Below are positions 17,984 to 52,294 of a stretch of 60,308 nucleotides of DNA, one piece after another. The stretch's first letter is position 1, and each line of letters opens with the position of its first letter. The notes under the pieces were generated by a model, which was not told the origin of the DNA, did no database searches, and was given only the letters and a program-made list of their open reading frames with translations. The stretch lies in IMG/VR virus record IMGVR_UViG_2923339551_000004; one strand, written 5' to 3'. Position numbers and translations under genes: made by a program. This DNA comes from a virus (lineage: Duplodnaviria > Heunggongvirae > Uroviricota > Caudoviricetes).

Positions 17984-18379
17984 TCACATTTCATAGGTAA
18001 TGACATACGTCAGATCGGCAGAACTCCACAAGCCCGCATCATCGTCGCGCCGGTAGTCATAGCCACTGGCCACCATACTGGTGATCAAATCTGACAGTGC
18101 CGGGATATCGCTCATCACCGGATAAATCCGGGACTCCATCCACGCATCCAGCTCTGAATCCGGCACCTGAGCAGGCAGGAAAACTTCAATATGCAGCTCC
18201 GCCTGCCAGGTATCGCTGTCCAGCTCTTCGCCCGTGTATTCAGCGCCGGTGAGATAAACGGCAATTGCCGGAAAATCTTCCTCATCAAAAACAGCAGGGC
18301 GACCATCAAAAAACGTCGCCCCGGTGTCATGCTTCTCCAGTGCATCCAGTACGGCTGCACGGAGTTCAGTATGTTTCAT
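17984..18379 (-). CDS. U: tail terminator protein U
   Basis: 131 aa, lambda U. Confidence 0.95.
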
Positions 18380-18954
18380 CGCTTTATTACCATCCTCAGT
18401 TGATGCTGCAGCGCATAGCCCAGCTCTTTCGGAAGACGCTCACGCCGTATCCGCTCAATATTCTGTTTAAACGCCGTGGTCAGCGGCACCGCCATCGGGA
18501 TTTTCACCACATCAATGGGGTAACGGTTTTTCCCGGCCACACGCTGCATGACATGCCAGCGGCCATTTTTCAGTTGCTGAATAAACGCGCCGGGAATACG
18601 ACGGTTTCCCACCACAAGCACGCTGCCGCCACCTTTCAGGGCTGAACGCTGCCCCTTTTTACGACGCCTGCGTCGGGACAGGACAATCCGCGCGTTACCC
18701 AGCTTTATTACGGGCAAATCCCCCCGGTTAACCCTGATTCTGGCCTGCGGATTTTTGACCGTGGCCCTTTTCAGCCAGGCCCTTTCCTTTACCAGTTTCC
18801 GGCGTACCTTTGTCTCACGGGCAACCTGTGACGCCGACTGCGATATCGCGGATGAAGCAACGCGGTTAATGGCCATTGCGGCGGCACCGGGCACCGCCGT
18901 TCTGCTGATACGGCTGAGGTTTTCAACGGCCTGCTCAAGACCTTTTATGGCCAT
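18376..18954 (-). CDS. Z: tail completion protein Z
   Basis: 192 aa, lambda Z. Confidence 0.95.
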   Translation of the reverse strand: MAIKGLEQAVENLSRISRTAVPGAAAMAINRVASSAISQSASQVARETKVRRKLVKERAWLKRATVKNPQARIRVNRGDLPVIKLGNARIVLSRRRRRKKGQRSALKGGGSVLVVGNRRIPGAFIQQLKNGRWHVMQRVAGKNRYPIDVVKIPMAVPLTTAFKQNIERIRRERLPKELGYALQHQLRMVIKR

Positions 18955-18965
18955 ACATCCCCCTT

Positions 18966-19319
18966 TCAGCGGCGACGGTTAACGGCAGGCGGTACGCCCC
19001 GCCCAAGCCAGAGATGACAGCTTCCGCCATCATCCGGCGAAATCCGGTCTATCCAGAAGTTTTCCTCACCGATGGTCAGCGTGTCGCCGCGCCGCAGCTG
19101 CCGCACATCATCAGTCCGGACAAACAGGGACGGGCTGGAGCCTTCAACGCGTACGCCCTGTCCGGCATAGCTGATATTTTCAGGGTCATCAAAAACACCA
19201 CGTATTACTGCGCCGGACTGCTCACCGGATGTCATGGTGGCTGACGTTCCCATGTACCCGCGTATCGTTTCATCGGCGCGGGCAATGGCAGCATCGAACA
19301 GGTTATCGAAATCAGCCAC
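18966..19319 (-). CDS. FII: head-tail joining protein FII
   Basis: 117 aa, lambda FII. Confidence 0.95.
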   Translation of the reverse strand: MADFDNLFDAAIARADETIRGYMGTSATMTSGEQSGAVIRGVFDDPENISYAGQGVRVEGSSPSLFVRTDDVRQLRRGDTLTIGEENFWIDRISPDDGGSCHLWLGRGVPPAVNRRR

Positions 19320-19330
19320 AGCGCCTCCCG

Positions 19331-19726
19331 TTATTGCATTCTGGCCAGGCCGCGCTCTGTCATTTCAGCTGCCACACCGGCAGAGACACGGAACGCCGTT
19401 CCCGGCAGCACAAATGCCACAGCCTCATCCCGCGTGGCGTGAAGTGCATCAGTATGCAGCGTCACCAGTGCCACAACCGTGACCAGATCAGCCGTATCAG
19501 TCACGGTATCCGGCTGCGCTGATACCACCTCATTTTCATGTCCGGTCAGCGCATTTTCCGGGCTGACAGATGTGTCCTGACCGGCAGCGTCATCCGTGTC
19601 ATCAAGCTCCTCTTCCAGCTCTGCCACACGGAGCGCCAGTTCTTCTTTCGTCCCCGTCAGGCTGACATCACGGTTCAGTTGTTCACCCAGCGAGCGGAGA
19701 CGGGCAATCAGTTCATCTTTCGTCAT
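19331..19726 (-). CDS. FI: DNA packaging protein FI
   Basis: Lambda FI homolog; start at MTKDELIARLRSLGEQL. Confidence 0.9.
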   Translation of the reverse strand: MTKDELIARLRSLGEQLNRDVSLTGTKEELALRVAELEEELDDTDDAAGQDTSVSPENALTGHENEVVSAQPDTVTDTADLVTVVALVTLHTDALHATRDEAVAFVLPGTAFRVSAGVAAEMTERGLARMQ

Positions 19727-19767
19727 GGACTCCTCCACAGAGAAACAATGGCCCCGAAGGGCCATGA

Positions 19768-20557
19768 TTACGCCAGTTGTACGGACACGAACTCATCAGG
19801 GTCAGCCAGCAGCATCAGCGGTGCTGACTGAATCATGGTGAACTCACGCGCCGGATCGCCGGTGGTCACCCAGTTTTTCGGGTAACGGGCAGAGGCGTTA
19901 ATGCCTTCGCGCTGTGCGTCCGCATCCTGAATGCAGCCATAGGTGCGCAGACCGCGTGCATGAGTGTTACCCAGCACCATCGTGTTGTCCGGCAGGAAGT
20001 TCTTTTTGACGCCGTTTTCCACGTACTGTCCGGAATACACGACGATGGCCACATCGCCATACATCCCCTTATAGGACACCGCTTTACCCAGGTCTTTCAC
20101 CGCTGTCTCCAGCTCGGAATGAGAGCCGCGACGGGTATCCAGCTTCTCCTTGACGGCGTTGAAGGAACGGAACAGCGCCCAGCCTTTCGGATCAAACACG
20201 ATGATATTCACCACGCCGCTGGCGTTCAGCGCGTAGGCTTCGATATCGTCGGTCGGGTCATACGTGGACTTGTCACGCTTGCTCCACTCCGTGCCGCCGG
20301 ACTGCGTGATGTTGTTCGCCGCACTGCGGCCCATATCCACCTCAACCGGATCGAAGGCTTCACCGGTCATGGTGTATTTGCCCTTGAGCACGGCAGAAAC
20401 TGCCTGCATCTCTTCGACCTGAGCAATGGCCAGCTCTTCGTCACGCATGTTCTGCAGGATGATGCGACGGCGGCGGTAAGCCGGGTCCGCCAGATTCTGC
20501 GGATCTTCATCCGGCAGGCGACGCAGGGTCATCTGCGGATTCACTTCATGCTTGGGT
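19768..20557 (-). pseudogene. E: major capsid protein E, C-terminal fragment (codons ~83 to end) separated from its 5' part by the satellite insertion
   Basis: Translation ...PKHEVNPQMTLRRLPDEDPQNLADPAYRRRR... to ...EFVSVQLA matches lambda E from residue ~80; in-frame stop immediately upstream at the junction. Confidence 0.9.
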
Positions 20558-20712
20558 TACATGAGTCAATCCCGAAAGAACTATTTGATTTCACTTAGCT
20601 TTGTGGTTTATATATCTACGCAACTCCTATCACTGCAATACTTTCTGCAATACAGATATGTGTAGTGAGGACTTGTCTAAAAACCATATTCACGAAGAAA
20701 AAGGATGACACG

Positions 20713-21876
20713 ATGCAACCAGAAGATTATGAAGAAAAGCAATACGAGGATGAGCCAGAATCCTATCCAATTGATGAGTTTCAACTTACTACTACGCCCA
20801 ATGATTTTAATATAATCACAATTATAAGTTTTATTAAATCAAAAGTTTTTAAAATCCCTAACTTTCAAAGGCATTATGTTTGGGATATCAAACGAGCATC
20901 AAAACTCATTGAATCTCTTTTAATAGGCCTTCCTATACCTCAAATATTTTTATATGAACAAGATAAAAATGAATTTTTAGTGATAGATGGTCAGCAGAGA
21001 TTAATGACCCTTTATTACTTTGTAAATGGTGTATTCCCTAGAAAAGAGAAACGTTCTGAACTGAGAAAAATCTTTGAAGATAATGGAAACATTCCAGAAA
21101 ACATTCTTCACAATGATGAATACTTCACAAAGTTCAACCTAAAACTTGATGGTCTATCAGACACCCAAAAAAACAAGTTTAATGGGAAAAACTATGAAAC
21201 ATTAAACGAATTTCAAACCACTTTAAATCTGGCAACCATACGAAATATGGTAATCAAACCGGTTGCACAAGATTCGGAAGATGGTGCAATGTTTGAAATA
21301 TTTAACCGCCTAAATAGTGGGGGAATGAACCTTTCTCCTCAAGAAATTCGTATGAGTTTATATCACTCAGACTTTCTTTCAAATCTTGTTTCATTGAATG
21401 AAAACAAGACATGGAGAAAAATTCTTTCAAAAAATGTTGTTGACATGCGATTGAGTGATATTGAAGCGATATTGCGCACATTTGCTATGTCCCTTTTTAC
21501 ATCTCAATACAAAAGCTCAGTTAGCGGTTTTTTGAACAATTTCTCAAATTATGCAAAAAACTACGACACTAAAGACATAATTTTATTTAGTAATATATGG
21601 AATGAATTTATGGATAGTGTTGATGGAATTGATGAAATCAATTTCAGAACTGGTGGGAATCGTATGAGTATAACTTTATTTGAGTCAATTTTTTATGCTG
21701 CAACTTATGACTCATTTAAAGATAAAGATCTAAAAATAAGACAAGTGACGGTGAATTACATCGATAAGCTTAAAAATGATCCTGAATTTCTGACATTTAG
21801 TACTGATAAAACAACAAGAAGAGAGCATGTAATTGGACGTCTAGAACGTGCAAGAACAATTTTGGAGGGAATGTAA
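20713..21876 (+). CDS. DUF262 (ParB-like nuclease/NTPase fold, GmrSD N-terminal-domain-like) protein
   Basis: Motif FLVIDGQQRLMTLYYF (DGQQR signature of DUF262); AT-rich; start at ATG 20713 with RBS aaggatga (track ORF begins 20665). Confidence 0.7.
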   Translation: MQPEDYEEKQYEDEPESYPIDEFQLTTTPNDFNIITIISFIKSKVFKIPNFQRHYVWDIKRASKLIESLLIGLPIPQIFLYEQDKNEFLVIDGQQRLMTLYYFVNGVFPRKEKRSELRKIFEDNGNIPENILHNDEYFTKFNLKLDGLSDTQKNKFNGKNYETLNEFQTTLNLATIRNMVIKPVAQDSEDGAMFEIFNRLNSGGMNLSPQEIRMSLYHSDFLSNLVSLNENKTWRKILSKNVVDMRLSDIEAILRTFAMSLFTSQYKSSVSGFLNNFSNYAKNYDTKDIILFSNIWNEFMDSVDGIDEINFRTGGNRMSITLFESIFYAATYDSFKDKDLKIRQVTVNYIDKLKNDPEFLTFSTDKTTRREHVIGRLERARTILEGM

Positions 21877-21880
21877 AATA

Positions 21881-22429
21881 ATGGAGGATATGGGATATAC
21901 TTCTATTGAAAGTATGTTTAATAACTATAAGTGTTATTATGATTTTCTTCTAACTCATAATGAGATTAGTTTTGCTAATGATTACAAATCACAATTTTCA
22001 AAAGTAATGCTATTAGCATGTGCTAGCTATTTTGAAACTTTAGTTGTAACTAAGATACATTGTATGCTTAACCCAAGCCAATGTAATCTTACACACGATT
22101 TTATCGATAATAAGGCCCTAACCAGGCAGTATCATACACTCTTTGATTGGAAAAAAAGGAATGCAAACCAGTTTTTTTCCTTTTTTGGCCCAAAATTTAA
22201 AGAGTTTATGATTGAGAAGGTAAAATCAAGCACAGAGTTGACCAAGTCTATCTCTGATTTTATGGAAATCGGAGAGCTAAGAAATAAATTAGCACATAAT
22301 AATTATGCTACTTTTGTATTAGAAAGCACAGCTGAAGAGATTTATAATAAATTTTTAAATGCACATTCATTTGTCTCTCAACTAGATACGTTCAGTACAC
22401 AGTTTAGAGAGCAAATTGGTGAACAGTAA
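21881..22429 (+). CDS. hypothetical protein, possible HEPN-like partner of the DUF262 gene
   Basis: Start ATG 21881 preceded by ggaggga, 5 nt after the DUF262 stop; C-terminal motif ELRNKLAHNNY fits the Rx4H HEPN pattern; motif-level evidence only. Confidence 0.45.
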   Translation: MEDMGYTSIESMFNNYKCYYDFLLTHNEISFANDYKSQFSKVMLLACASYFETLVVTKIHCMLNPSQCNLTHDFIDNKALTRQYHTLFDWKKRNANQFFSFFGPKFKEFMIEKVKSSTELTKSISDFMEIGELRNKLAHNNYATFVLESTAEEIYNKFLNAHSFVSQLDTFSTQFREQIGEQ

Positions 22430-22466
22430 TAGTTTATCTCCAGCAAAAAAATAACTTGCAAATAAT

Positions 22467-22493
22467 AAAAGCGGTCGCGTGACCGCTTTTTTC
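22467..22493. terminator. bidirectional intrinsic terminator between convergent genes
   Basis: aaaagcggtcgcgtgaccgctttttt: hairpin flanked by an A-run and a T-run. Confidence 0.7.
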
Positions 22494-22687
22494 TATTTAT
22501 CATTGCTATTTTCCTTTATTATTTCAGCAATTGACATAACTAAGGCGTCTGCTTTATTTCTAGTCCTATCAAACATATCTCTAATTACATCAATATAATA
22601 ATGTTCCTCAAAAATATTTACGTATGACAAAAGTATTGCACAACTCTTGCCCAAAATGTCAGCCAGTTGATCTTTGTTGACTTCCAT
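22493..22687 (-). CDS. small ORF with a Nu1-like N-terminus (first ~15 aa) fused to unrelated AT-rich sequence
   Basis: MEVNKDQLADILGKS... versus helper Nu1 MEVNKKQLADIFGAS...; sits next to the satellite cos. Confidence 0.4.
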   Translation of the reverse strand: MEVNKDQLADILGKSCAILLSYVNIFEEHYYIDVIRDMFDRTRNKADALVMSIAEIIKENSNDK

Positions 22688-22699
22688 TGTTCATTCCAC

Positions 22700-22920
22700 G
22701 GACAAAAACAGAGAAAGGAAACGACAGAGGCCAAAATGCCCGTTTTCAGCGCCTGTCATTTCCTTTCTTTTCAGGGGGTATTTTAAATAAAAACATAAAG
22801 TTACGGCGAAGAAGAACGGAAATGCCTTAAACCGGAAAATTTCCATAAATAGAGAAAAACTGCGCGCCTGACGCCCCGTAGCCTGTCAGATCGCCGGAAA
22901 GGACCCGCCAGCCAGAGCGG
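22700..22920 (-). other. satellite cos region: lambda-like terminase-binding segment with a divergent cosN
   Basis: ~85-90% identity by eye to helper cos 38060..38290 over the terminase-binding segment; the cosN-equivalent 12-mer (22865..22876, cgcctgacgccc) differs from the helper (aggtcgccgccc) at 5 positions. Confidence 0.75.
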
Positions 22921-22932
22921 GCCCTAATTTCA

Positions 22933-23316
22933 TCAACCAATCAGCTTATAGCGACCATCCCGTGCATTGCGGCGTACACGCTCAATCTTGAGGCATAGCG
23001 CCGCATCTGGCTTTTTTGGGACAGGTACGCGGCAATATTCAGAAGCGCGAGGAATATTATTTATCCAGTCGATCACTTCACTTAAATACCAGGCCTTACG
23101 CCCTTCCGTAACCTGCACACGCTCCGGGAACTCTCCACTAGCCTCAAGGTTTAGCAGTGTACGCCGACTCAGGGTTGTAATTTCCATCACCTGATTCATA
23201 TCAACAAGGCGCTCGCTTAAACACATTTTGTCAGCGATAGCTTTTAATTCCTCTACAGCTGGATTCGGGTACATCATTTCGGCAATTGGCTTAAGGTCAT
23301 TGTAATCATTCTGCAT
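22933..23316 (-). CDS. AlpA-like HTH DNA-binding protein
   Basis: Central segment MEITTLSRRTLLNLEASGEFPERVQVTEGRKAWYLSEVIDWI resembles AlpA/Xis-type HTH; start uncertain. Confidence 0.55.
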   Translation of the reverse strand: MQNDYNDLKPIAEMMYPNPAVEELKAIADKMCLSERLVDMNQVMEITTLSRRTLLNLEASGEFPERVQVTEGRKAWYLSEVIDWINNIPRASEYCRVPVPKKPDAALCLKIERVRRNARDGRYKLIG

Positions 23317-23327
23317 TGTATCCCCCT

Positions 23328-23669
23328 TTACACACGAGCCAGCGGCTGAACAGAAATACCTGAGCCAACAAACGCGGCAACCTTTGCCGACAGTTCTCTT
23401 ACAGACTCAGGCCAGTTCAGAGCATCAACATTTAAAACACCTGTCTTATAAACCTGTGCCTGTGTTTTTTTCGCTGTGTCGATTTGTACAGCGGAAACAT
23501 AAACCGCTTTGCCTGCGCTCGTTCCATCCCATACCACTAGCGCACCAGTTGCATCTTCCTGCATCAGTGGCGTAAACGCAGGTATTACCCCTTTATTGGC
23601 TGAAAATATCCCCAGCGTAGTAACCAGTGCTTCAGTGCCAGACATGAGTTCAGTGTAATGAGTAGCCAT
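23328..23669 (-). CDS. head decoration protein D homolog (divergent), satellite-encoded
   Basis: 113 aa; recognisable similarity to lambda D (VVWDGTSAGKAV versus [13 protein letters not shown]), far more diverged than the helper D at 32164..32496. Confidence 0.7.
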   Translation of the reverse strand: MATHYTELMSGTEALVTTLGIFSANKGVIPAFTPLMQEDATGALVVWDGTSAGKAVYVSAVQIDTAKKTQAQVYKTGVLNVDALNWPESVRELSAKVAAFVGSGISVQPLARV

Positions 23670-23678
23670 TGCTCCCCC

Positions 23679-24719
23679 TTAGCCAATGCGAACGGTAACA
23701 AAACGATTGATGCGGGCCGGTATTGGCTGTGGTGCTGAATGTGTCTGCACATATTCAATAGCCGGATCACCAGGCACAATATAGTTTTTCGGTGCAAGTT
23801 CGGCTTTAGTCAGCCCCATTCGGATTAGCTCCGGATCCTGAATACCGCCATAGGCGACAATCCCCTGAAGAGCCGTATTGCCAAGCACCATCAAATCAGG
23901 ATCAAGGAAATGTTTTTCAGTTCCGTCCTCGTCGGTATAACGCCCGCTGTATACAACAATCGCAACATCGCCCATATACCCTTTAAAACTCACCGAATCA
24001 CCAAGGTCTTTAAGGGCCGTTTCCAGTTCGGAATTAGAACCACGACGGGTATCCAGAGCCTCTTTTATCGCTCTGAATGAACGGTATTTCTTCCATACAT
24101 TACCGCCCATAATGATGATATTAGTGACGCCCTCACTAAATTCTGCGTAGCTCTCAATATCATCATTTGGATCAAAAGTTTCTTTATCCTTACCTGACCA
24201 CTCAGCACCGCCAGACTGAGTGATGATATTTTGTGGTTTAATATTCCAGTCCAGCTCATAACGTTCAATACCATCGCCCTCAATGATATTTTTCCCCGTT
24301 GTGATTGCCTGAACGGCAAGCCATTCAATACGTGCACGAATAGCTTTAGCCTGATTTACAATCGCCTGTTTAACTTTAATATTACGCGCTCCAAAAGCAT
24401 TGTATTGCTCAGGTGATACACCAGCAGGGCGCACAGCTAACTTATTTGGATCAATGCTGCTTTTCGGCTTCATATAGCCTGGACGAATTGTTTTTGATTC
24501 GTACCCTTCGTCACGTGAAACTTTACTACCCACCATAGGAGAACAAAACGCTGCAATTGGGATATTTGGATCGTCGATTGTATCAAGAATAATATCGCGC
24601 GATTCAAACATTACCGAGCGAGTAAAAAACAAACTGGTAAACAACGCATTTAGTTGTTTTTGTACATCTACAGCATTAACCACCTGTACAAGCTGGGTAG
24701 GCGAATATAAATCAACCAT
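23679..24719 (-). CDS. major capsid protein E homolog (divergent), satellite-encoded
   Basis: About half the positions shared with lambda E over the C-terminal part (TRRGSNSELETALKDLG, GDVAIVVYSG); start at ATG 24719 with aagagg RBS (track ORF begins 24893). Confidence 0.8.
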   Translation of the reverse strand: MVDLYSPTQLVQVVNAVDVQKQLNALFTSLFFTRSVMFESRDIILDTIDDPNIPIAAFCSPMVGSKVSRDEGYESKTIRPGYMKPKSSIDPNKLAVRPAGVSPEQYNAFGARNIKVKQAIVNQAKAIRARIEWLAVQAITTGKNIIEGDGIERYELDWNIKPQNIITQSGGAEWSGKDKETFDPNDDIESYAEFSEGVTNIIIMGGNVWKKYRSFRAIKEALDTRRGSNSELETALKDLGDSVSFKGYMGDVAIVVYSGRYTDEDGTEKHFLDPDLMVLGNTALQGIVAYGGIQDPELIRMGLTKAELAPKNYIVPGDPAIEYVQTHSAPQPIPARINRFVTVRIG

Positions 24720-24936
24720 ACGCATCCTCTTTGCATTCATTAAAAATAATTGTGGATATATGCTATCACCGATATTTGTCATGCGAATACATGCAACCGA
24801 GTGCAATGTTGTATAAAGTTTTGGGATGACAACTTCAGCACGGATAATTAGTGTTAATATCTTCACTCCCTTTGGTCTGGATTTATGTAGCATGCCGGAA
24901 AATTTATTTTTTTCCGGCCTTTTTTATTGGCAATAT

Positions 24937-25386
24937 TTAAAGCGGAATATCATCTCCCCATTGCTCATTATCTCCCACTGGTGGATGGCTTCCTTGCTGA
25001 TCTGCCTGTTGTTTTGCTCTGTTCAGTGCGTCAGTAGCCTGCCCCTGTTGGCCTTTTTTGCCGCCCGGTCGCACCGATCGCGCACTGATTACGCTGTCTG
25101 CGATAACCTGCCAGCCCTGCCGCGTTTCACCGTTCTGTCCAGTCCACTGGCTCACCTGCATATTACCCGCCACGCTCAGGAGTTCGCCTTTGTGATGCTT
25201 TGCCAGCGTGTCGGCTTGTCTGCCAAACGCCAGCACAGATAACCACATCGTCGCCGTTCCGTCATCTGCCTGGCTGCATGGCAAAGATACCGCCATCCAT
25301 GCCAGTGTCATGGGTGTTCCCTTGCTGGTATGTTTTACCTGTGGGTCGTCCACCAGCCGCCCGTAAGCTGCTATTTGCGCCGTCAT
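24937..25386 (-). CDS. single-stranded DNA-binding protein-like (SSB-like)
   Basis: 149 aa; OB-fold-like N-terminus, Gly/Gln-rich tail and terminal DDIPL resembling the SSB C-terminal DDDIPF. Confidence 0.6.
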   Translation of the reverse strand: MTAQIAAYGRLVDDPQVKHTSKGTPMTLAWMAVSLPCSQADDGTATMWLSVLAFGRQADTLAKHHKGELLSVAGNMQVSQWTGQNGETRQGWQVIADSVISARSVRPGGKKGQQGQATDALNRAKQQADQQGSHPPVGDNEQWGDDIPL

Positions 25387-25397
25387 GCTGCCTGCTC

Positions 25398-25640
25398 TCA
25401 GGACTTAATATTGATGGTTGTCACTTCCTCCGCTTCGGCAATCTCCCGTTCGGTCAGCGTGGCAAAGTTTGCAGCCGCCGTTGTCATGAATGCGCTTATC
25501 AGTTCGGGATGTGCTTTCGCGTATCCTTCCCCGGCGTTGCGGTCTATTGCCTTAATCGCCACCCTTAGCCAGTGTTCAGCCATATCAAGGGCGCGGTAAT
25601 GTGGCTTTATATGTTTGTTCAGTTTTCCTGATGTGTGCAT
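25398..25640 (-). CDS. hypothetical protein
   Basis: 80 aa ORF between the origin and the SSB-like gene. Confidence 0.4.
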   Translation of the reverse strand: MHTSGKLNKHIKPHYRALDMAEHWLRVAIKAIDRNAGEGYAKAHPELISAFMTTAAANFATLTEREIAEAEEVTTINIKS

Positions 25641-25685
25641 TTTTATTTTTACCCCCTCGTTTAAAAAGTTTTTTGTGCACCACCA

Positions 25686-25918
25686 CCTTGTCTACCTTGT
25701 CTACCTGATTAGTTATCAGGCCAGTAATGGCGCGGGTTTCAGGGAGGTAGACAGCCCCAAATAGCTGTCTACCTCATCTCTACCCGTCTCCTTACCTGTC
25801 TACAAAAATGGGTAGATAAGGTAGATAACAGGTAGACAGTGAAAAATAGTTATCTACCTGCATTAATACATTGAAATAAAAGTATTTTATTTCAGTCAGG
25901 TAGACAAGGTAGATAACC
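25686..25918. repeat. iteron array, putative satellite replication origin
   Basis: At least 11 copies of GGTAGA(C/T)A / T(A/G)TCTACC in both orientations, irregularly spaced, immediately 3' of the primase/helicase gene. Confidence 0.75.
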
Positions 25919-25929
25919 ATTGCCATTTT

Positions 25930-27681
25930 TTATAAAAACGCATCGCAATCATCAGTAGTCGTTGCGTTGGTCTGCGTGACTCCCTTAACTTTTCGAGTAA
26001 TATATTCATATCCGTAAACTTTCGCCGCTGACCTCATAGCCTTTCCGAACTCATTCACGCTCAAACATTTCCCCTTTCCTGTATATGCCATGAAGGCCAT
26101 ATAGACACGGTAAAGGCTGTTTCTGGTCGTGTACTTCACGGTGTCACCACCACCGCCCATCATTAGCCCACGAGCTTCCTCCAGAAACTCCAGCGCCGCG
26201 CAAAGCTCAACAACCGGATCCGTTTGCTGCTTTATTGCCAGAGCTTCATCACCGTCACGCTGTTCCAGTAATAAAGCCCGTGCCTTTTCAGGGTCAGCAA
26301 AATTAGCCAGCAAGCGGCGGATAATTACGGGGATTTCTGCCGCTATCTTTTCCGGTAATTCCTTGTCTTTTTCGTCCTCCCTTACAATGTTGTCGAACCG
26401 GAAAATCACCCGACGGCGTGACACACCTCCGGCCCGTTCGGTAAAGATCATCGGGTCGTTATTGGTTGCCAGTACCACCGCCCTTATTATCGTCGTGAAT
26501 CGCTTCTCATATTTCGGGTTAATTTCAACGGGATCGCCTCCCGTGATTTTCTTGATGCCCGTGCCTTCCCCCGTATATTTCGGCTGATCGGCAAGGACGA
26601 TAAGACGACTCCCGACAACCTGCGCACGCCCTCCTGCATCATCGAGTGATGTCATCTCTGCGCTTACGGTGTTCTGTTTGCCAGCAAGCAGGGTGGCAAT
26701 ATGGGTAAATGTACTCTTACCGCTTCCCCCGTCTCCGGTGGCCTCAATGAACATCTGCCAGTCGTACCGGTTCGCCATAATCATGTACAGCGCGGCACAT
26801 ATACGCATCATCTTGCGCGGGTCTTTTCCGGCTGCGTGCTCAAGCCATTTATGAAAGTTTGGCGCGTTATCGCGGATGTTCTCCCCTGGTGCTGGTGGCG
26901 TGTACTCAATGCCGTTGTGCGTGGTGATCCAGTTCTCCGGCGTGTGCGGGGAAAATTCCCCCGTTTTCAGGTCAAGCGCACCATTGGCGAACGGCAGCAA
27001 ATCGCCGGACGGCTCGCCCATTGGTTCGGCAATAACTTTTAACGCTTCAACGGCGTTATTGATCACGCGTTTGCTGAAAGTGGCCCTGTGCTCTGAATAG
27101 ATCGCCACCATTTCGCGGCTCAGCTCCATTGTGCTGATCGGACACCATACCCCGCCGCGCCATACGTGAACGATTTCACTTTCCGGATGCACACAAACGC
27201 CATCAAAGCGCTCGGCAAGCAGCTGCGCGCGCTCACTGTCTGCCATCTGTGAAAGTTGCGCCTTTTGCTTCGTCGGAAGATTAAGCACCAGGCTTTCCCC
27301 ACGCTCGCATTCCTCTTTGAGTCGCGGCAACTGGTCGGATAAATCCACTGGGCTGGTGTCAGTAATCCCCGCGTATTCGTGTACGGTCTTCACTCCAGCC
27401 ACAGCCAGTAACGTAACAATCTGCGTCATGCTGTGCTCTGTGATATGTCCTGCGCGGTAAACACGCACACACTGACGATCTTCATCAATGATCCGGTAAT
27501 CGGTGATGTTTTTCAGTTGCTCATCAGCCAACACGACAGGCGGCACATCGTCGGCGGCAATATGTTTACCCGCCCATTCCTGCCACTCTTTCGCATGGCT
27601 CCACGCATCACTACCTGCAAAGATGATTATCTCTGTCAGTCTGTCGCGTGGCTGTTTTTTTAAGTTCGGTGCCAGTTTCAT
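25930..27681 (-). CDS. replication protein: primase/helicase (P4 alpha / D5-like SF3 helicase family)
   Basis: 583 aa; Walker A EATGDGGSGKSTF; sits next to the iterons. Confidence 0.75.
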   Translation of the reverse strand: MKLAPNLKKQPRDRLTEIIIFAGSDAWSHAKEWQEWAGKHIAADDVPPVVLADEQLKNITDYRIIDEDRQCVRVYRAGHITEHSMTQIVTLLAVAGVKTVHEYAGITDTSPVDLSDQLPRLKEECERGESLVLNLPTKQKAQLSQMADSERAQLLAERFDGVCVHPESEIVHVWRGGVWCPISTMELSREMVAIYSEHRATFSKRVINNAVEALKVIAEPMGEPSGDLLPFANGALDLKTGEFSPHTPENWITTHNGIEYTPPAPGENIRDNAPNFHKWLEHAAGKDPRKMMRICAALYMIMANRYDWQMFIEATGDGGSGKSTFTHIATLLAGKQNTVSAEMTSLDDAGGRAQVVGSRLIVLADQPKYTGEGTGIKKITGGDPVEINPKYEKRFTTIIRAVVLATNNDPMIFTERAGGVSRRRVIFRFDNIVREDEKDKELPEKIAAEIPVIIRRLLANFADPEKARALLLEQRDGDEALAIKQQTDPVVELCAALEFLEEARGLMMGGGGDTVKYTTRNSLYRVYMAFMAYTGKGKCLSVNEFGKAMRSAAKVYGYEYITRKVKGVTQTNATTTDDCDAFL

Positions 27682-27977
27682 TTTTTGCCCCTGAATGCGT
27701 TAATCATGCTTTTCATTTTCTGGATGTTTCCCCGCGCTTTTTCCCTGCTGATGGGCTTACTACGGGGTGCGGCATATACCAGGGAAAAATCACGCCGGAA
27801 CTGATAAACAGGCATCACGCAGTCATAGCTATACCCCTCACGACGGTAAGTGATGCGCCGTTCTGCCACGCCTTTAATCGTTACCGTGCCGCCGTATTTA
27901 TCGCGGTAAATATCGCCGTTCATAAATTCAGGCCGAGCGGGGCCGCTGGCAATAAAGCCAGAATTTTTCATTTCCAT
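27678..27977 (-). CDS. hypothetical protein (replication-operon small ORF)
   Basis: 99 aa; stop overlaps the primase start (27678..27681). Confidence 0.45.
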   Translation of the reverse strand: MEMKNSGFIASGPARPEFMNGDIYRDKYGGTVTIKGVAERRITYRREGYSYDCVMPVYQFRRDFSLVYAAPRSKPISREKARGNIQKMKSMINAFRGKK

Positions 27978-27994
27978 ATTATTTATTCCTCGAC

Positions 27995-28216
27995 TTAACT
28001 CGACTTATTTGATAGCAGGGCACTATTTATTGCGTCATTGAGTTTTTCTGCTGCTTCATCAATAAGTGACAACAGGCCATAAGCAATATTTGCATCTTCA
28101 TTGTCATTTATGCAATCAAGCCACATATTTAATATTGCTTTTGCTGAATTATTTAAAGTTAATGAACTTTCTGCACATGCTAACAATTTAAAAAAGACTT
28201 CCCGTTCTGTATTCAT
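27995..28216 (-). CDS. hypothetical protein
   Basis: 73 aa ORF, AT-rich. Confidence 0.35.
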   Translation of the reverse strand: MNTEREVFFKLLACAESSLTLNNSAKAILNMWLDCINDNEDANIAYGLLSLIDEAAEKLNDAINSALLSNKSS

Positions 28217-28408
28217 TTAATCCCCCACCAGCTTACTTTCTTCCTCAATCAAAAAACTAGCGACACTTCCCGAAAGACGCGCCAGTAGGCTCGCCAGTGC
28301 GGATATATCAGCATCTGTAATTTTGTTCGGGTATACCTCAAGAAGGCGGCAAATAATTTCTGTCTGGTGCGCACGTTCAGCGGCTTCGTGTAATGTGATT
28401 TCCTGCAT
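28217..28408 (-). CDS. hypothetical protein
   Basis: 63 aa ORF abutting neighbours. Confidence 0.35.
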   Translation of the reverse strand: MQEITLHEAAERAHQTEIICRLLEVYPNKITDADISALASLLARLSGSVASFLIEEESKLVGD

Positions 28409-28593
28409 TAATGCACCTCTTTTAATTCATACACTGCTGAAATAATGACTTGTGATAAGCCATATTCTGATGATTCGCTTCTCACCGCAGCAATAGCCGT
28501 CTGAACATTAACAGCCTTCACATTCTGAGCGATACCAATTGTGTGGCCTATTGGGTTAACAGCTCGGGCAAATACACGGAAGGTTTTAAGCAT
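28408..28593 (-). CDS. hypothetical protein
   Basis: 61 aa ORF abutting neighbours. Confidence 0.35.
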   Translation of the reverse strand: MLKTFRVFARAVNPIGHTIGIAQNVKAVNVQTAIAAVRSESSEYGLSQVIISAVYELKEVH

Positions 28594-28787
28594 GACTCAC
28601 TCCCTGGCGGATTTTTGCAGCGAATACAGCAACACAACCGGACGGGCAACGGCTACGCGCTTCGCGTTCCGTCCAGGCGGTTACGTGGATGATTTGAGAT
28701 TCTCCGGCACTCAGTGCCAGAAAACGCCACACAAAGGCCGTTTGTGTGTGTACAAGGTGTGGTATATGATTTACAGCAACCATAACG
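28587..28787 (-). CDS. hypothetical protein, first gene of the leftward satellite operon
   Basis: 66 aa from ATG 28787 with aggag RBS; below the 60-aa track cutoff as a separate ORF because it is embedded in the spurious 28586..29317 frame. Confidence 0.4.
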
Positions 28788-28973
28788 GCTCCTAGTTTAC
28801 GTTGTTGGTTAGACGCCCCGTATGTGTTCCCAGCACTGCGGGGCGTTGCTCTTTGTATTTCAACAATCCTTTCGGTGTGTTTCATGTTATGAGCGCATGA
28901 AACACACGTCAAGGCTTTTTGTATTTCTTTTTTTGTGTATACTGAAACACACCGATGATTAGGAGTTTCAGAA

Positions 28974-29279
28974 ATGGCAACGGCTAACAAAAACGCAAAA
29001 TCACAACTGACAACTGTCAGAGTCCCACTAGATGTTATGCAAGGGATGGAATCCGTTAAGCTGGACGGTGAAAGCAATGCCGGATTTATCGTAACCGCCA
29101 TGCGCGGTGAAATCGCCCGCCGCCAGGCAGAAGGAAGCGGAGAAAATCCCCTCGTGTCTTCACTGGATGCCTTAGCTAAGGTCGAACAAATCGGCATCAA
29201 GGCAGCGGAGGAAATCGGGCAACTCGTAGCCGTCGCTCGTGAAGAACTCCAGCGGCGTAAAGCCAAAGAATCTGAATAA
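28974..29279 (+). CDS. hypothetical protein, divergently transcribed from the replication operon (possible regulator)
   Basis: 101 aa; RBS aggag upstream; divergent arrangement typical of a satellite control region. Confidence 0.45.
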   Translation: MATANKNAKSQLTTVRVPLDVMQGMESVKLDGESNAGFIVTAMRGEIARRQAEGSGENPLVSSLDALAKVEQIGIKAAEEIGQLVAVAREELQRRKAKESE

Positions 29280-29629
29280 TTAGTATCAGCGCCGTGATGT
29301 GAGTAACTACGGCGCATTGCTATGTAAATACTGGCAATAAACAGAAAAGGTAGTTCTACTCCGAATAATTTTATCTGACACTACTCCTGAACTAACATGC
29401 GCTTATCTTACAGGATATAAATATAAATCCATAAAATCACGATTAAATAAAGTCGCTCCAAACATAAACCACACCCAACGCTTAACAAGATAGCAACAAA
29501 CAGGTAAATAACTTGCAGAAATATTTATCGCAAGGATTATCATTATTAATGACAAATCACTTTACCAAGTCATTCCCCTCTCTTATCATAAAGAGAAAGT
29601 AATAAATAAGTTAAGGGAGTTAGAATGCT

Positions 29630-30166
29630 ATGAATCTAAAAAAAATAGCCACAAACACAAAAAACAAGATAACAGAAACATTTAATAAACTTATATTAGA
29701 GGCATCTAAAACCCCCACGCAAGATGAAATTAAAATACTTGAGAGAAGGAGTAAGAAGTTTAATTACTCCTTTTTCTCATACGCAGTCACAGGAGCTATA
29801 ATAGTTTTTTGCTCTCAACCATTAATTAAATACGCAAACCCAATACTTATTTTATTGAGTGGTCTGTTACTGTCTATCATCATTATCATTCTCAGAATGA
29901 TTTATATTTCACAAGCGAATGCATCATGGACAACCAAAAAACGCTCACATGTACTAGTTCATTTTCTTTCTGCATGTTTCATAGCATCAACATTGACGTT
30001 GCTATATCAGGCTTACGATAATAACATCACACACAAATTGTACTGTAAAAATATACAACAACTTATTGAAAAAAGGATAGAAACAGAAAAAAACATCAGC
30101 ATATTCAGTGGGATGCAATGCACCCCGGTATATGATTACTCTTTATTTGGATTTAATCTCTTATAA
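29630..30166 (+). CDS. AT-rich predicted membrane protein
   Basis: 178 aa; two strongly hydrophobic segments (AIIVFCSQPLI, ILILLSGLLLSIIIIILRMIYI); very low GC; aagggag RBS. Confidence 0.5.
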   Translation: MNLKKIATNTKNKITETFNKLILEASKTPTQDEIKILERRSKKFNYSFFSYAVTGAIIVFCSQPLIKYANPILILLSGLLLSIIIIILRMIYISQANASWTTKKRSHVLVHFLSACFIASTLTLLYQAYDNNITHKLYCKNIQQLIEKRIETEKNISIFSGMQCTPVYDYSLFGFNLL

Positions 30167-30235
30167 AGAATGTTATTACTGATTTGAGTACAAATTCTCA
30201 AATCAGTAATTCATAATATTTTATTCTGAGATAAT

Positions 30236-30472
30236 TTAAACTACCCACTCACCTCGAATCCATGCCTGCACTTCTGAAAGACGATATGCAACAGCAGTGG
30301 AACCAATCTTGATCCGCTTAGGAAATTTTCCTTCCTTCTCCAGCTTCCAGCGTGTGCTGTTCGCAAGAGTGGTTAGCTCCCGACATTCTTTCTCACGGAT
30401 CATTCGGTCAATGTTAGGAATGTACTCCAGACCCTTTTTATCAACAATTGCCATTTTTTTCATGTTAACCAA
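30236..30472 (-). CDS. alpA: AlpA-family transcriptional regulator / excisionase-like
   Basis: 78 aa, ...ELTTLANSTRWKLEKEGKFPKRIKIGSTAVAYRLSEVQAWI; directly downstream of the integrase. Confidence 0.7.
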   Translation of the reverse strand: MVNMKKMAIVDKKGLEYIPNIDRMIREKECRELTTLANSTRWKLEKEGKFPKRIKIGSTAVAYRLSEVQAWIRGEWVV

Positions 30473-31700
30473 CCTTTTGTTTGAGGATTGTCACTTTTGA
30501 ATCAGCACCTGCGATGCTATTGAGATATGTAGTCCAGAGTTCCAGAGCATCCAGTTTTTTAGCCATAAACTTACTCCGGTTGTAAACACCTGCCACGCCA
30601 GGTAGCGCATGGCCTAACAGTTGTTCTACTACATAAAATTCAACACCGAGATCACTTAGATGAGTAGATAGCGTTCTTCTAAGGTCGTGTAGTGACCATT
30701 GTTTTTCATGGCCCAAACGTTTACCGATTTTCCCCCCAATCTTGCTTACGCTTTCTCTAATTCGCAGACTTCCCAGCACATAACCAGTATGTTTTGTCTC
30801 TTCGTGAACATCCGTTACCCACTGTCGTAGAATTTCAGGTACTGGTCTGACGATTTCAACACCAGTTTTTGAGTGATCTTTTGGTACAGTCCAAACCCAA
30901 CTTTCGAGATCCCATTCGCTCCATTCTGATAATCGGGCTTCACTCATTCGACATCCAAATACTGTACAAAGCACAAACATTTTTCGCGTGTATTCAGACA
31001 TTAGTTTTAAATCAGGCTCGACAAAAATTGCCTTCCAGAGCTGGCCGAGTTCGGCTTCATCCAGAACCCGATCCCGCTTACCTGCAATCTGCCCCACATC
31101 ACTCATGCGCAAATCCTTTAAAGCATCACACGTCGCGTACTGGCGTACCCGACAAAAACGAAGAGCTAATTTAGTGTCAGAAAAAACATACGCCGCCATA
31201 ACTGGTGCATTACGTTTAATTCGGTCAAAACAGTCCAGCCATTCATATAGGTGAGTGTCATTTACGGGCAAATGACCGATATAGGGAAAGATATGCTTTC
31301 GAAATCTGCCAAGCGTTACAGCATGAGTTTTACGACGCACCTTACAGTAATTTTCATACCAGTAATTTAGTGCATCCTCCACTGTAACCGGCTTTAAGCG
31401 TTCTTCAGCCTGAATCTTAATCTGGATACGCGGATCACGTTTGTCAGCCAACCAACCACGGCACTCGTCGCGCTTTTCCCTTGCCTGTTTGAGTGACATA
31501 TCAGGATATTTACCCAACGTTAGCCAGACCGGAGCAGCCCGGCCACCTGCTAACCTGTAGAAGAAAACAAAGCTCACAGCCCCTTTAGTACTCACACGAA
31601 TAGAAAGCCCCTTTCCATCAGCAATGGTGATCTGCTTTTCTCTGGGTTTCCCCAGATATCCTTTAAGCGCTTTGTCGCTCAGTTTGTTCTCGCCAGCCAT
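30465..31700 (-). CDS. int: tyrosine recombinase / integrase (P4-type), satellite
   Basis: C-terminal catalytic region with HDLRRT and LLGH...Y motifs; start placed at MAGENKL (track ORF extends to 31751); adjacent to the att repeat. Confidence 0.85.
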   Translation of the reverse strand: MAGENKLSDKALKGYLGKPREKQITIADGKGLSIRVSTKGAVSFVFFYRLAGGRAAPVWLTLGKYPDMSLKQAREKRDECRGWLADKRDPRIQIKIQAEERLKPVTVEDALNYWYENYCKVRRKTHAVTLGRFRKHIFPYIGHLPVNDTHLYEWLDCFDRIKRNAPVMAAYVFSDTKLALRFCRVRQYATCDALKDLRMSDVGQIAGKRDRVLDEAELGQLWKAIFVEPDLKLMSEYTRKMFVLCTVFGCRMSEARLSEWSEWDLESWVWTVPKDHSKTGVEIVRPVPEILRQWVTDVHEETKHTGYVLGSLRIRESVSKIGGKIGKRLGHEKQWSLHDLRRTLSTHLSDLGVEFYVVEQLLGHALPGVAGVYNRSKFMAKKLDALELWTTYLNSIAGADSKVTILKQKVG

Positions 31701-31832
31701 TTTTAGCCCCAAAAAGCAATACAAGCTGCAATACAGAGATGATTGCAACACACAGATAACGAGGAAAATTCAGTGAAAGCACCAGATAAACTTATTCTTT
31801 ATTATCAAAAGATTAAGTGTAAAAACCAGCAA

Positions 31833-32108
31833 CTACACGAAAGCCTCAGAAAGCCATGCTAAGTGCTTGGGTTTGACATATCCCGGCGTAAATTCAGAGG
31901 TGGAGCCGCCACGGGAACGGATAACCTCACCGGAAACAATCGGCGAAACGTACAGCGCCATGTTTACCAGTCCCGGAATTTGTGAGAGATAGACTTTCTC
32001 CGTAGTGAAGGGATAGCTCTCACGGAAAAAGAGACGCAGAAACAGCGGATCAAACTTAAATTTCTGCTCATTTGCCGCCAGCAGCTGGGCGGTTGTGTAC
32101 ATCGACAT
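31833..32108 (-). pseudogene. E: major capsid protein E, N-terminal fragment (82 aa) fused to 9 satellite-encoded codons
   Basis: MSMYTTAQLLAANEQKFKFDPLFLRLFF...GYVKPKH then LAWLSEAFV and stop; breakpoint at the KPKH codons. Confidence 0.9.
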
Positions 32109-32163
32109 AAAAAAATCCCGTAAAAAAAGCCGCACAGGCGGCCTTTAGTGATGAAGGGTAAAG

Positions 32164-32496
32164 TTAAACGATGCTGATTGCCGTTCCGGCAAACGCGGTC
32201 CGTTTTTTCGTCTCGTCGCTGGCAGCCTCCGGCCAGAGCACATCCTCATAACGGAACGTGCCGGACTTGTAGAACGTCAGCGTGGTGCTGGTCTGGTCAG
32301 CATCAACCGCCAGAATGCCAACGGCAGCACCGTCGGTGGTGCCATCCCACGCAACCAGCTTACGGGTGGAGGTATCCAGCATCAGCGGGGTCATTGCAGG
32401 CGCTTTCGCACTCAATCCGCCGGGCGCGGTTGCCGTATGTGCCGGGTCACTGTTGCCCAGCGGCTGGTAATGGGTAAAGGTTTCTTTGCTCGTCAT
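32164..32496 (-). CDS. D: head decoration protein D
   Basis: [27 protein letters not shown]..., near-identical to lambda D. Confidence 0.95.
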
Positions 32497-32505
32497 AAAC
32501 ATCCC

Positions 32506-38440: not shown

Positions 38441-38635
38441 ATGTCAACGAAGAACAGAACCCGCAGAACAACAACCCGCAACATCCGCTTTCCTAACCAA
38501 ATGATTGAACAAATTAACATCGCTCTTGAGCAAAAAGGGTCCGGGAATTTCTCAGCCTGGGTCATTGAAGCCTGCCGTCGGAGACTAACGTCAGAAAAGA
38601 GAGCATATACATCAATCCAGAGTGATGATGAATAA
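38441..38635 (+). CDS. hypothetical protein, conserved lambda right-end ORF
   Basis: 64 aa ORF between cos and bor. Confidence 0.5.
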   Translation: MSTKNRTRRTTTRNIRFPNQMIEQINIALEQKGSGNFSAWVIEACRRRLTSEKRAYTSIQSDDE

Positions 38636-50789: not shown

Positions 50790-50930
50790 TTAAAAGACAG
50801 GCATACTAATAAACACTGCACTGTGTATTTATTCCAACGAGTGAATACACGGAGCAATGTCGCTCGTAACTAAACAGGAGCCGACTTGTTCTGATTATTG
50901 GAAATCTTCTTTGCCCTCCTGGATTTGCCC

Positions 50931-51836
50931 CTATATTTCCAGACATCTGTTATCACTTAACCCATTACAAGCCCGCTGCCGCAGATATTCCCGTGGCGAG
51001 CGATAACCCAGCGCACTATGCGGATGCCATTCGTTATAATGCTCGAACGCCTCTGCAAGGTTCTTTGCTGCCGTTAACCCGTCTGGTTTGGGCATGATAC
51101 TGATGTAGTCACGCTTTATCGTTTTCACGAAGCTCTCTGCGATTCCGTTACTCTCCGGACTCCGCACCGCCGTGTTCTTCGGTTCAAGTCCCAACATCCG
51201 GGCGAACTGGCGTGTTTCATTAGCCCGGTAGCATGAACCATTATCCGTCAGCCACTCCACTGGAGACGACGGAAGATCGTTGCCGAAGCGGCGTTCCACC
51301 GCTCCCAGCATGACGTCCTGTACTGTTTCACTGTTGAAGCCGCCGGTAGTGACCGCCCAGTGCAGTGCCTCACGATCACAGCAGTCCAGCGCGAACGTGA
51401 CACGCAGTCTCTCTCCGTTATCACAGCAGAACTCGAACCCGTCAGAGCACCATCGCTGATTGCTTTCTTTCACGGCCACTCTGCCTGTATGTGCCCGTTT
51501 CGATGGCGGTACAGCAGGTTTTCGCTCAAGCAACAGCGCATTCTGGCGCATGATCCGGTAAACACGTTTGGCATTGATCGCAGGCATACCATCAAGTTCT
51601 GCCTGTCTGCGAAGCAGCGCCCATACCCGACGATAACCATACGTGGGCAGCTCTCCGATAACATGGTGTATACGGAGAAGCACATCCGTATCATCAGTGT
51701 GACGACTGCGGCGGCCATCCATCCAGTCATCGGTTCGTCTGAGAATGACGTGCAACTGCGCACGCGACACCCGGAGACAACGGCTGACTAAGCTTACTCC
51801 CCATCCCCGGGCAATAAGGGCGCGTGCGCTATCCAC
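50931..51836 (-). CDS. insD: IS2 transposase InsD (OrfB)
   Basis: 301 aa, DDE transposase. Confidence 0.9.
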
Positions 51837-52159
51837 TTTTTTGCCCGTCCATATTCAACGGCTTCTTTGAGGAGTTCATTTTCCATCGTTTTCTTGCCGA
51901 GCAGGCGCTGGAGTTCTTTAATCTGCTTCATGGCGGCAGCAAGTTCAGAGGCAGGAACAACCTGTTCTCCGGCGGCGACAGCAGTAAGACTTCCTTCCTG
52001 GTATTGCTTACGCCAGAGAAATAACTGGCTGGCTGCTACACCATGTTGCCGGGCAACGAGGGAGACCGTCATCCCCGGTTCAAAGCTCTGCTGAACAATT
52101 GCGATCTTTTCCTGTGTGGTACGCCGTCTGCGTTTCTCCGGTCCTAAGACATCAATCAT
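51794..52159 (-). CDS. insC: IS2 InsC (OrfA)
   Basis: [47 protein letters not shown]... Confidence 0.9.
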
Positions 52160-52294
52160 CTGCTCTCCAATGACTAGTCTAAAAACTAGTATTAAGACTA
52201 TCACTTAAATAAGTGATACTGGTTGTCTGGAGATTCAGGGGGCCAGTCTACCTCCAGTGTGAGGGCGATTTTTTATCTATGAGGATATGAATAG

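Follow-up and report, generated by a model that had tools for sequence, protein, structure and literature searches.

The locus treated here is a chain of five small open reading frames (ORF1 to ORF5) on the minus strand, directly upstream of a satellite primase gene, in the IMG/VR virus record IMGVR_UViG_2923339551_000004, a caudoviricete-assigned stretch of 60,308 nucleotides (nt) that is called the window below. The closest described system is the helper-embedded phage-inducible chromosomal island (PICI), published in 2023 by Tommasini, Mageeney and Williams with 201 elements at the site E:Phage_cap_E:80 and with 11capE as the type element, for which excision was reported and no particles were isolated (PMC10111431). 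The zone between the Integration and Replication zones of such elements is named the 'Bro zone' in that paper, for which Bro-N network proteins and C4/isrK RNAs are described, and neither DUF4222 nor YlcI/YnfO is mentioned in its main text (PMC10111431).

Related layouts are known from P4, from P1 and from EcCICFT073-type PICIs. The left operon of P4 consists of vis, eta/kil with the CI RNA, epsilon, orf151, cnr and alpha; Cnr binds alpha, and translation of kil/eta reportedly serves the genes downstream. In the immunity-I operon of P1 (c4-icd-ant), the downstream genes depend on the Icd-family first cistron. The EcCICFT073-type PICIs (Fillol-Salom 2018/2019) are laid out as int, alpA, small ORFs and pri-rep; in EcCICFT073, AlpA activates downstream genes, including the first downstream gene, and the global repressor of Gram-negative PICIs was called unclear by the 2018 paper (PMC6092414).

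The element examined here matches 11capE in its size of ~11.3 kb, its insertion at codon ~80, its co-orientation with the helper and its possession of int, alpA, primase, SSB and a capsid gene of its own, and the five ORFs sit in the zone between Integration and Replication (PMC10111431). Of what is described for that zone, a single piece was found here, the Icd-like module that ends an eta-type gene. All five ORFs are real genes that code for conserved proteins and are tightly linked, and the operon that they open is modular, with fixed ends, a swappable middle and the ORF4 family at a fixed position. In the reading that is considered rather probable, mechanism included, they make up the front half, regulatory and accessory in character, of an early (replication) operon that belongs to an 11.3-kb helper-embedded PICI.

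Layout and coding evidence of the five-gene operon

All five ORFs lie on the minus strand, at 28586-28783 (ORF1, 65 amino acids (aa), basic), 28408-28593 (ORF2, 61 aa, basic), 28217-28408 (ORF3, 63 aa, acidic), 27995-28216 (ORF4, 73 aa, acidic, gene with 32% GC) and 27678-27977 (ORF5, 99 aa, isoelectric point 10.2), and the last gene of the chain is a primase/helicase at 25930..27681 (minus strand; D5_N and DUF5906, by Pfam and NCBIfam matches). ORF1 and ORF2 overlap by 8 nt, ORF2 and ORF3 overlap by 1 nt (TAATG), ORF3 and ORF4 abut, ORF4 and ORF5 are separated by 17 nt with GAGGA inside the gap, and ORF5 overlaps the primase gene by 4 nt (ATGA). All five genes start with ATG, preceded at a distance of 6-9 nt by a purine-rich Shine-Dalgarno sequence. 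Between ORF1 and the primase gene, the minus strand showed no terminator-like site.

Relatives were compared in a set of 71 elements from E. coli loci and IMG/VR, chosen for an exact match to the 34-nt ribosome-binding region of ORF1. Median pairwise ratios of nonsynonymous to synonymous substitution (dN/dS) among relatives were 0.30 for ORF1, 0.29 for ORF3, 0.37 for the ORF4 family and 0.32 for ORF5, so that the four families measured gave no sign of diversifying selection (dN/dS < 1). Close copies of ORF2 vary too little for this ratio; a full-length copy from E. albertii is 49% identical in amino acids despite saturated synonymous sites. Each of the five ORFs matched a PHROG family (E-values from 2e-28 to 9e-46), and all five are annotated as coding sequences by RefSeq/PGAP in identical copies, which are present in more than 40 complete E. 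coli genomes. Parts of the region were detected in 1916 of 5426 complete E. coli genomes (more than a third). A PADLOC scan gave no match for the five ORFs or their neighbours, and no Bro-N or Ash domain and no named anti-phage or antirepressor family was found in the five.

A preliminary description of this DNA, made from the sequence alone, had claimed five packed minus-strand ORFs of 61-99 aa that form the 5' part of a leftward operon continuing into the primase, and this holds: the sizes fit, the genes are closely joined, one candidate promoter precedes them and the run to the primase is free of terminator-like sites. The AGGAG-preceded ATG that it reported also exists (AGGAG at 28793-28789), with the start codon at 28783-28781 and not at 28787. 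Its proposed check of conservation and coding signal, once run, came out in favour of coding, with dN/dS of ~0.3-0.4 for four families and with each of the five genes recurring in some or all of the 71 related elements. A longer frame of 243 aa (28586..29317, minus strand), in which ORF1 is merged with upstream sequence, was rejected as an artefact because the promoter and Shine-Dalgarno sequence fall inside it and its upstream part is merely antisense to the YlcI/YnfO gene described below.

Gene order in the 71 elements is an Icd-like gene, variable genes, where present a member of the ORF4 family, a DUF4222 gene and a replicase gene. The Icd-like gene is first in all 71, DUF4222 stands immediately before the replicase in every complete element, and the arrangement in the window is the commonest one. 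ORF2 is present in 28 of the 71 and ORF3 in 31, and elements without them carry other small gene families there; the two are a swappable cassette, of which ORF2 is the first and ORF3 the second half. The five genes are satellite genes and not phage genes, because the region had no DNA match in phage records, DUF4222 had no protein match there, and the Icd-like protein matched only one of them, a 16.5-kb induced satellite-like record.

Protein families of the operon

By its profile matches, ORF1 is a homologue of P4 Kil and P1 Icd in the form of a stand-alone 65-aa cistron. The NCBIfam model NF033153 (host cell division inhibitor Icd-like) was matched with 63.7 bits against a cut-off of 25 (E 1.2e-17) and phrog_1743 with an E-value of 2.4e-22; both models also match (NF033153 with 73.9 bits) the C-terminal part of P4 'cI ORF137', which is the kil reading frame at the end of eta. 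In other satellites the Icd-like domain forms the end of a longer Ash/Bro-type protein. Counting from the candidate promoter and leader, ORF1 comes first, and its dN/dS ranges from 0.12 to 0.30. A PDB sequence search with ORF1 returned nothing at E<=1, and tblastn at E 1e-3 did not reach any bona fide phage, not even P1. The P1 operon is therefore comparable in having an Icd-family first cistron in a regulated operon, a link drawn through NF033153 and at profile level only, and differs in its C4 RNA and ant gene, neither of which is present here.

Several features of Icd-like genes were noted in passing. A longer Icd-like protein is annotated in some relatives (123 aa in L011), and two or three tandem Icd-like cistrons stand at the operon head in relatives L017, L018, L021, L023, L028, L032, L054, L056, L061, L064, L068 and L074. 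Within ORF1 codons ~12-20 (28728-28748, minus strand) lies a terminator-like hairpin, CACACAAA/TTTGTGTG followed by GCGTTTTCTG, which is invariant in close relatives, synonymous sites included, and missing from diverged C4-type relatives. By analogy with P4 timm it may be a translation-sensitive attenuator, or it may be due to chance.

ORF5 is, by sequence, a DUF4222/RgdR-family protein, with 83.2 bits to Pfam PF13973 (DUF4222) against a gathering score of 27 (E 9e-24). It is 70% identical to a DUF4222 protein encoded just before the replicase gene in an O157:H7 satellite of the same family; that satellite lies between roxA and phoQ, and we take it to be CP-933C/OI-51. RgdR itself (ECs1581, 99 aa, from OI-51/CP-933C of E. 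coli O157:H7) activates LEE1 and represses motility, and its binding to DNA is not sequence-specific; its orthologues c1493 and ECED1_1787 belong to CFT073 and ED1a, both of which are strains of model PICIs (PMC3378721). The phenotypes described for RgdR concern host genes (LEE1 activation and motility repression). The preliminary description had found none of the five proteins recognisable, a statement that does not hold for ORF1, which passes NF033153, and for ORF5, which passes DUF4222 and is homologous to a regulator that has been studied.

In the DUF4222 alignment, 30 columns are invariant in 71 homologues, mostly at residues 21-66. The AlphaFold2 model of ORF5 has a core at residues 21-70 (pLDDT ~90) with an SH3/Tudor-like barrel followed by a C-terminal helix. 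A PDB sequence search with ORF5 gave nothing at E<=1, and a scan of species-representative genomes with DUF4222 gave 2 loci. On a second, weaker reading, ORF5 and RgdR could be an RNA-polymerase-binding Tudor-like domain of the UvrD/CarD type; if this were true, RNA-polymerase binding by DUF4222 would account for the pleiotropic effects of RgdR.

The middle of the operon is less readily placed in families. A beta-beta-alpha-beta fold was predicted for ORF2, and we read ORF3 and ORF4 as helical from their sequences. ORF3 matched phrog_1478 (E 2.5e-34) and has dN/dS of 0.24-0.29. ORF4 matched phrog_2196 (E 2e-28); as a single sequence it found only near-identical relatives among 1.84 billion representatives, a full HMMER scan returned ORF4 itself and three repetitive false positives, and word-index searches with ORF2 and ORF4 returned only near-identical sequences. 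Against a profile of 8 same-position proteins from other loci, ORF4 scored 32.2 bits (best of 1000 shuffles 13.7), and it is therefore a member of a fast-diverging acidic family of 72-80 aa, present directly upstream of DUF4222 in 57 of the 71 elements.

The primase and P4 alpha share 41% identity across 443 aa. Three replicase types occur in relatives (DUF5906 primase, RepA helicase and DUF927), and across these catalytically unrelated types the N-terminal ~120 aa (window 27322-27681) are at least 41% identical; no Pfam domain covers this stretch.

Set against the P4 left operon, the functional order is the same, from an AlpA/Vis homologue through a 65-aa Kil/Icd-like first cistron and small ORFs to a small pre-primase protein and an alpha-type primase. 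The differences are that there is no CI/C4 RNA, no epsilon (PF25738) and no Cnr (DUF5375) here, that DUF4222 takes the place of Cnr, and that control is apparently exerted by a divergent protein repressor. The PF25738 and DUF5375 models do match the P4 proteins themselves. Homology of the five ORFs to Cnr, epsilon or orf151 was considered and rejected, the best match being that of ORF5 to the orf151 N-terminus at a marginal E-value of 0.027.

The control region and the satellite that carries the operon

Upstream of ORF1, a region of 190 bp separates the operon from a divergent YlcI/YnfO-family gene (28974..29279, plus strand, 101 aa; NF041551 with 62.6 bits against a cut-off of 30, E 2.7e-17). 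A promoter scan placed a candidate sigma-70 promoter at 28884..28912 on the minus strand (TTGACG-17 nt-TAACAT, 9/12 matches), and a TTGAC(A/G) hexamer occupies the equivalent place in most related upstream-region variants. The element shares the order of int, alpA, small ORFs and pri-rep with EcCICFT073-type PICIs and differs from them in that alpA is set apart from the operon; because two plus-strand genes (29630-30166 and 28974-29279) lie between, the operon needs a promoter of its own.

Repeat finding identified three operator-like copies of GTGTGTTTCA in the region 28872..28955, at 28943-28952, at 28898-28907 and, inverted, at 28875-28884. Two of them bracket the promoter and the third adjoins the YlcI/YnfO start. 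The three exact copies fall within 80 bp, and the 60-kb window holds one further exact copy. Related upstream regions mostly have an equivalent layout, each with a different repeat of 10-14 nt, and wherever a divergent YlcI/YnfO-type gene is present, seven YlcI/YnfO alleles pair one-to-one with seven repeat motifs (GTGGCTGACA being the motif of another such pair). The sequence of the protein follows a pattern of strand, helix, G-x-S turn and helix, and the allele-specific residues fall in the predicted N-terminal beta-strand, that is, the strand expected to read DNA. Because the alleles co-vary with the motifs and the variable residues sit in this N-terminal strand, we infer that YlcI/YnfO is a ribbon-helix-helix repressor of the operon that acts at GTGTGTTTCA.

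An antisense RNA of the C4/CI kind was expected upstream of the Icd-like gene and was rejected for this element, since an Rfam scan of 18000-32500 (E<=1) gave no C4, isrK or c4-a1b1 RNA and only two weak MicX-like matches. In relatives L003 and L005, isrK and C4 were found directly upstream of the Icd-like gene (62-78 bits). It is proposed tentatively, with somewhat less than even confidence, that YlcI/YnfO is the master repressor still missing from the picture of a large group of Gram-negative PICIs and that the three repeats are its operator; in this group a protein-based immunity with at least seven specificities would have replaced the C4/CI RNA in front of the same operon of Icd-like gene, DUF4222 and replicase.

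The 5' leader contains a GC-rich hairpin, ACGCCCCG ... CGGGGCGT, at 28813..28846 on the minus strand, ~30 nt upstream of the ORF1 ATG and without a U-tract after it. Among 11 sequence variants, 2 pairs have compensatory double changes and none is broken. The hairpin is conserved in at least three sequence versions.

The helper prophage has a ylcI of its own (38441-38635, plus strand) beside the terminase genes, and this gene aligns with the satellite alleles, best with the L052-type. Regulatory cross-talk between helper and satellite through helper ylcI is conceivable from this resemblance.

The element is 11.3 kb long (window ~20559-31863) and sits in a lambdoid prophage, inserted within its lambda gpE-like major capsid gene. 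The split helper gene is represented by two gpE-like minus-strand fragments (19768-20556 and 31863-32108), and a 10-bp identity block, TGCTTGGGTT, is present at both element ends (20549-20558 and 31864-31873). The interruption is near codon ~80, with the N-terminal fragment ending in ...GYVKPKH and the C-terminal fragment restarting at the duplicated core codons (...PKHEVNPQ...). All key satellite genes are on the minus strand and are co-oriented with the helper late genes. The gene content comprises int, alpA, primase, an SSB gene, an 80-aa gene, a helix-turn-helix gene, capsid genes of its own and a DUF262 and HEPN pair; int and alpA stand at the upstream end, followed by the primase/SSB replication zone and by a late zone with captured capsid genes. 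By site, orientation and gene layout the element is a helper-embedded PICI at E:Phage_cap_E:80. This agrees with the PICI-type satellite of the preliminary description and assigns it to a published type (PMC10111431); the context and type of the element are thus already known, and in this respect the five ORFs are ordinary.

The captured genes of the late zone are a gpE-like major capsid gene (23679-24719, minus strand) and a gpD-like decoration gene (23328-23669, minus strand). The satellite capsid protein is ~45% identical to the C-terminal fragment of that of the helper, whose own gene is interrupted by the satellite. At the far end of the satellite are a DUF262 gene (20713-21876, plus strand) and a HEPN gene (21881-22429, plus strand), a pair that looks like defence-type cargo. 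At 22410-22566, between the HEPN gene and a 64-aa gene, weak matches to the MicX small-RNA model were obtained on both strands (31 and 20 bits; gathering score 75) on a hairpin, in all likelihood a bidirectional terminator. An AT-rich ORF (29630-30166, plus strand, 178 aa, 31% GC) without a significant family match separates alpA from the YlcI/YnfO gene; its sequence looks like that of a membrane protein, and it may be accessory cargo.

The window is a piece of E. coli chromosome. Over the region 25900-31800 it is 100% identical to strain MSHS 133 as well as to numerous isolates from birds and humans. In MSHS 133, an IS2 (1331 bp; L001 5393-6723) lies inside the satellite at the equivalent of window ~20621-20629. 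The satellite in the window lacks this insertion, and a 100%-identical IS2 copy is present outside it at 50920-52250.

Proposed mechanism, alternatives and meaning

In the mechanism proposed, a predicted ribbon-helix-helix dimer of YlcI/YnfO would occupy the three GTGTGTTTCA sites during quiescence and keep the operon off, and this protein switch would stand in for the isrK/C4 (P4 CI-type) antisense RNA of other relatives. Helper induction would open the promoter, with AlpA activation and read-through from the helper late operon as candidate causes, and a single mRNA would then extend from ORF1 to the primase. By analogy with P4 kil and P1 icd, translation of ORF1 would probably carry ribosomes into the downstream genes, and its product would probably be a small, transient blocker of cell division. 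The role of kil/eta translation in P4 is described in PMC10111431, citing Forti 1999. ORF2-ORF4 would supply small protein-binding accessory factors with host or helper targets. ORF5, with its SH3/Tudor-like barrel and basic helix, would be made in step with the primase and may act as a modulator associated with nucleic acid or polymerase, as RgdR does on host transcription.

Several points weigh against this account. Division inhibition by ORF1 would be an extrapolation from P1 and P4. At residues 20-22, ORF5 has NGD where RgdR has RGD, the tripeptide from which RgdR takes its name and with which its activity was associated, and an R20N change in RgdR lowers activation of type III secretion (PMC3378721); NGD is the majority form among aligned close DUF4222 homologues. 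For YlcI/YnfO, the ribbon-helix-helix assignment has one weak match in Pfam (PSK_trans_fac, E 0.019), and a profile search of PDB gave nothing significant. The pairing of alleles with motifs could partly reflect simple linkage, the gene adjoining the sites, and relatives without a divergent YlcI/YnfO gene keep paired element-specific repeats at equivalent promoter positions, so that the binder is a different protein there, or else is not YlcI/YnfO at all. An obligatory pairing of DUF4222 with the replicase is weakened by relative L012, whose primase has the shared N-terminal domain and no DUF4222 upstream.

The same L012 primase bears on a rather doubtful alternative, in which ORF5 is mainly a replication accessory analogous to Cnr that binds the replicase N-terminal domain and sets origin binding or copy number, the transcription effects reported for RgdR being secondary. 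Such a role would suit a gene that overlaps the replicase start and immediately precedes the replicase in every complete element, whichever of the three types with their common N-terminal domain is present, just as Cnr precedes alpha in P4; DNA binding without sequence specificity, as known for RgdR, would suit it as well (PMC3378721). ORF5 has no sequence similarity to Cnr/DUF5375, however, plasmid-expressed RgdR altered LEE1 expression and motility without its island, and truncated 63-aa copies exist on other islands outside a replicase context (PMC3378721). It is also unlikely that these small proteins, the variable ORF2-ORF4 at the least, serve in sensing the helper or interfering with it, the functions to which the preliminary description assigned this region, for example by binding a helper repressor, morphogenesis or replication protein. 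P4 epsilon, which binds the P2 repressor, is encoded in the same region and the variability of ORF2-ORF4 is in keeping with such a role, but none of the five matched PF25738, PADLOC models or named anti-phage or antirepressor families, and the dN/dS below 1 of the four families measured lacks the mark of diversifying selection. In EcCICFT073, sensing works through alpA transcription (PMC6092414), and packaging interference is assigned to redirected helper packaging (PMC6739421); neither activity corresponds to the five genes. This element has other candidates for interference, namely its own gpE-like and gpD-like capsid genes and the fact that it interrupts the capsid gene of the helper.

That ORF1 and the overlapping ORF2 form a toxin-antidote or abortive-infection pair with the Icd-like/Kil protein as toxin is very improbable. 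Overexpressed P4 Kil kills and P1 Icd blocks division (PMC10111431), and the 8-nt overlap would be natural for such a pair, but of the 71 elements, which keep a near-identical ORF1, only 28 have ORF2, the others have unrelated genes or a second Icd-like copy in its place, and PADLOC gave no match. It is scarcely credible that some of the five are chance frames or annotation carry-over: all are short, and word-index and representative searches with ORF2 and ORF4 brought up hardly any homologues other than near-identical E. coli copies, but against this stand the strong PHROG profiles, the Shine-Dalgarno sequences and coupled junctions, the dN/dS of 0.3-0.4 in four of five families, the score of ORF4 far above its best shuffle and the intact ORF2 frame of E. 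albertii.

Read as the front half of an early satellite operon, the five genes provide an early-operon map that is common to many E. coli satellites and separates core from accessory genes. The virulence-linked regulator RgdR is thereby placed in its native setting, that of a satellite early gene. The part that deserves follow-up lies just outside 27678-28787, in the operator and YlcI/YnfO pair, which is a testable candidate repressor for Gram-negative PICIs, a point left open by the founding paper (PMC6092414). If the master-repressor reading is true, the homologous helper ylcI at 38441-38635 may allow direct cross-talk between helper and satellite.

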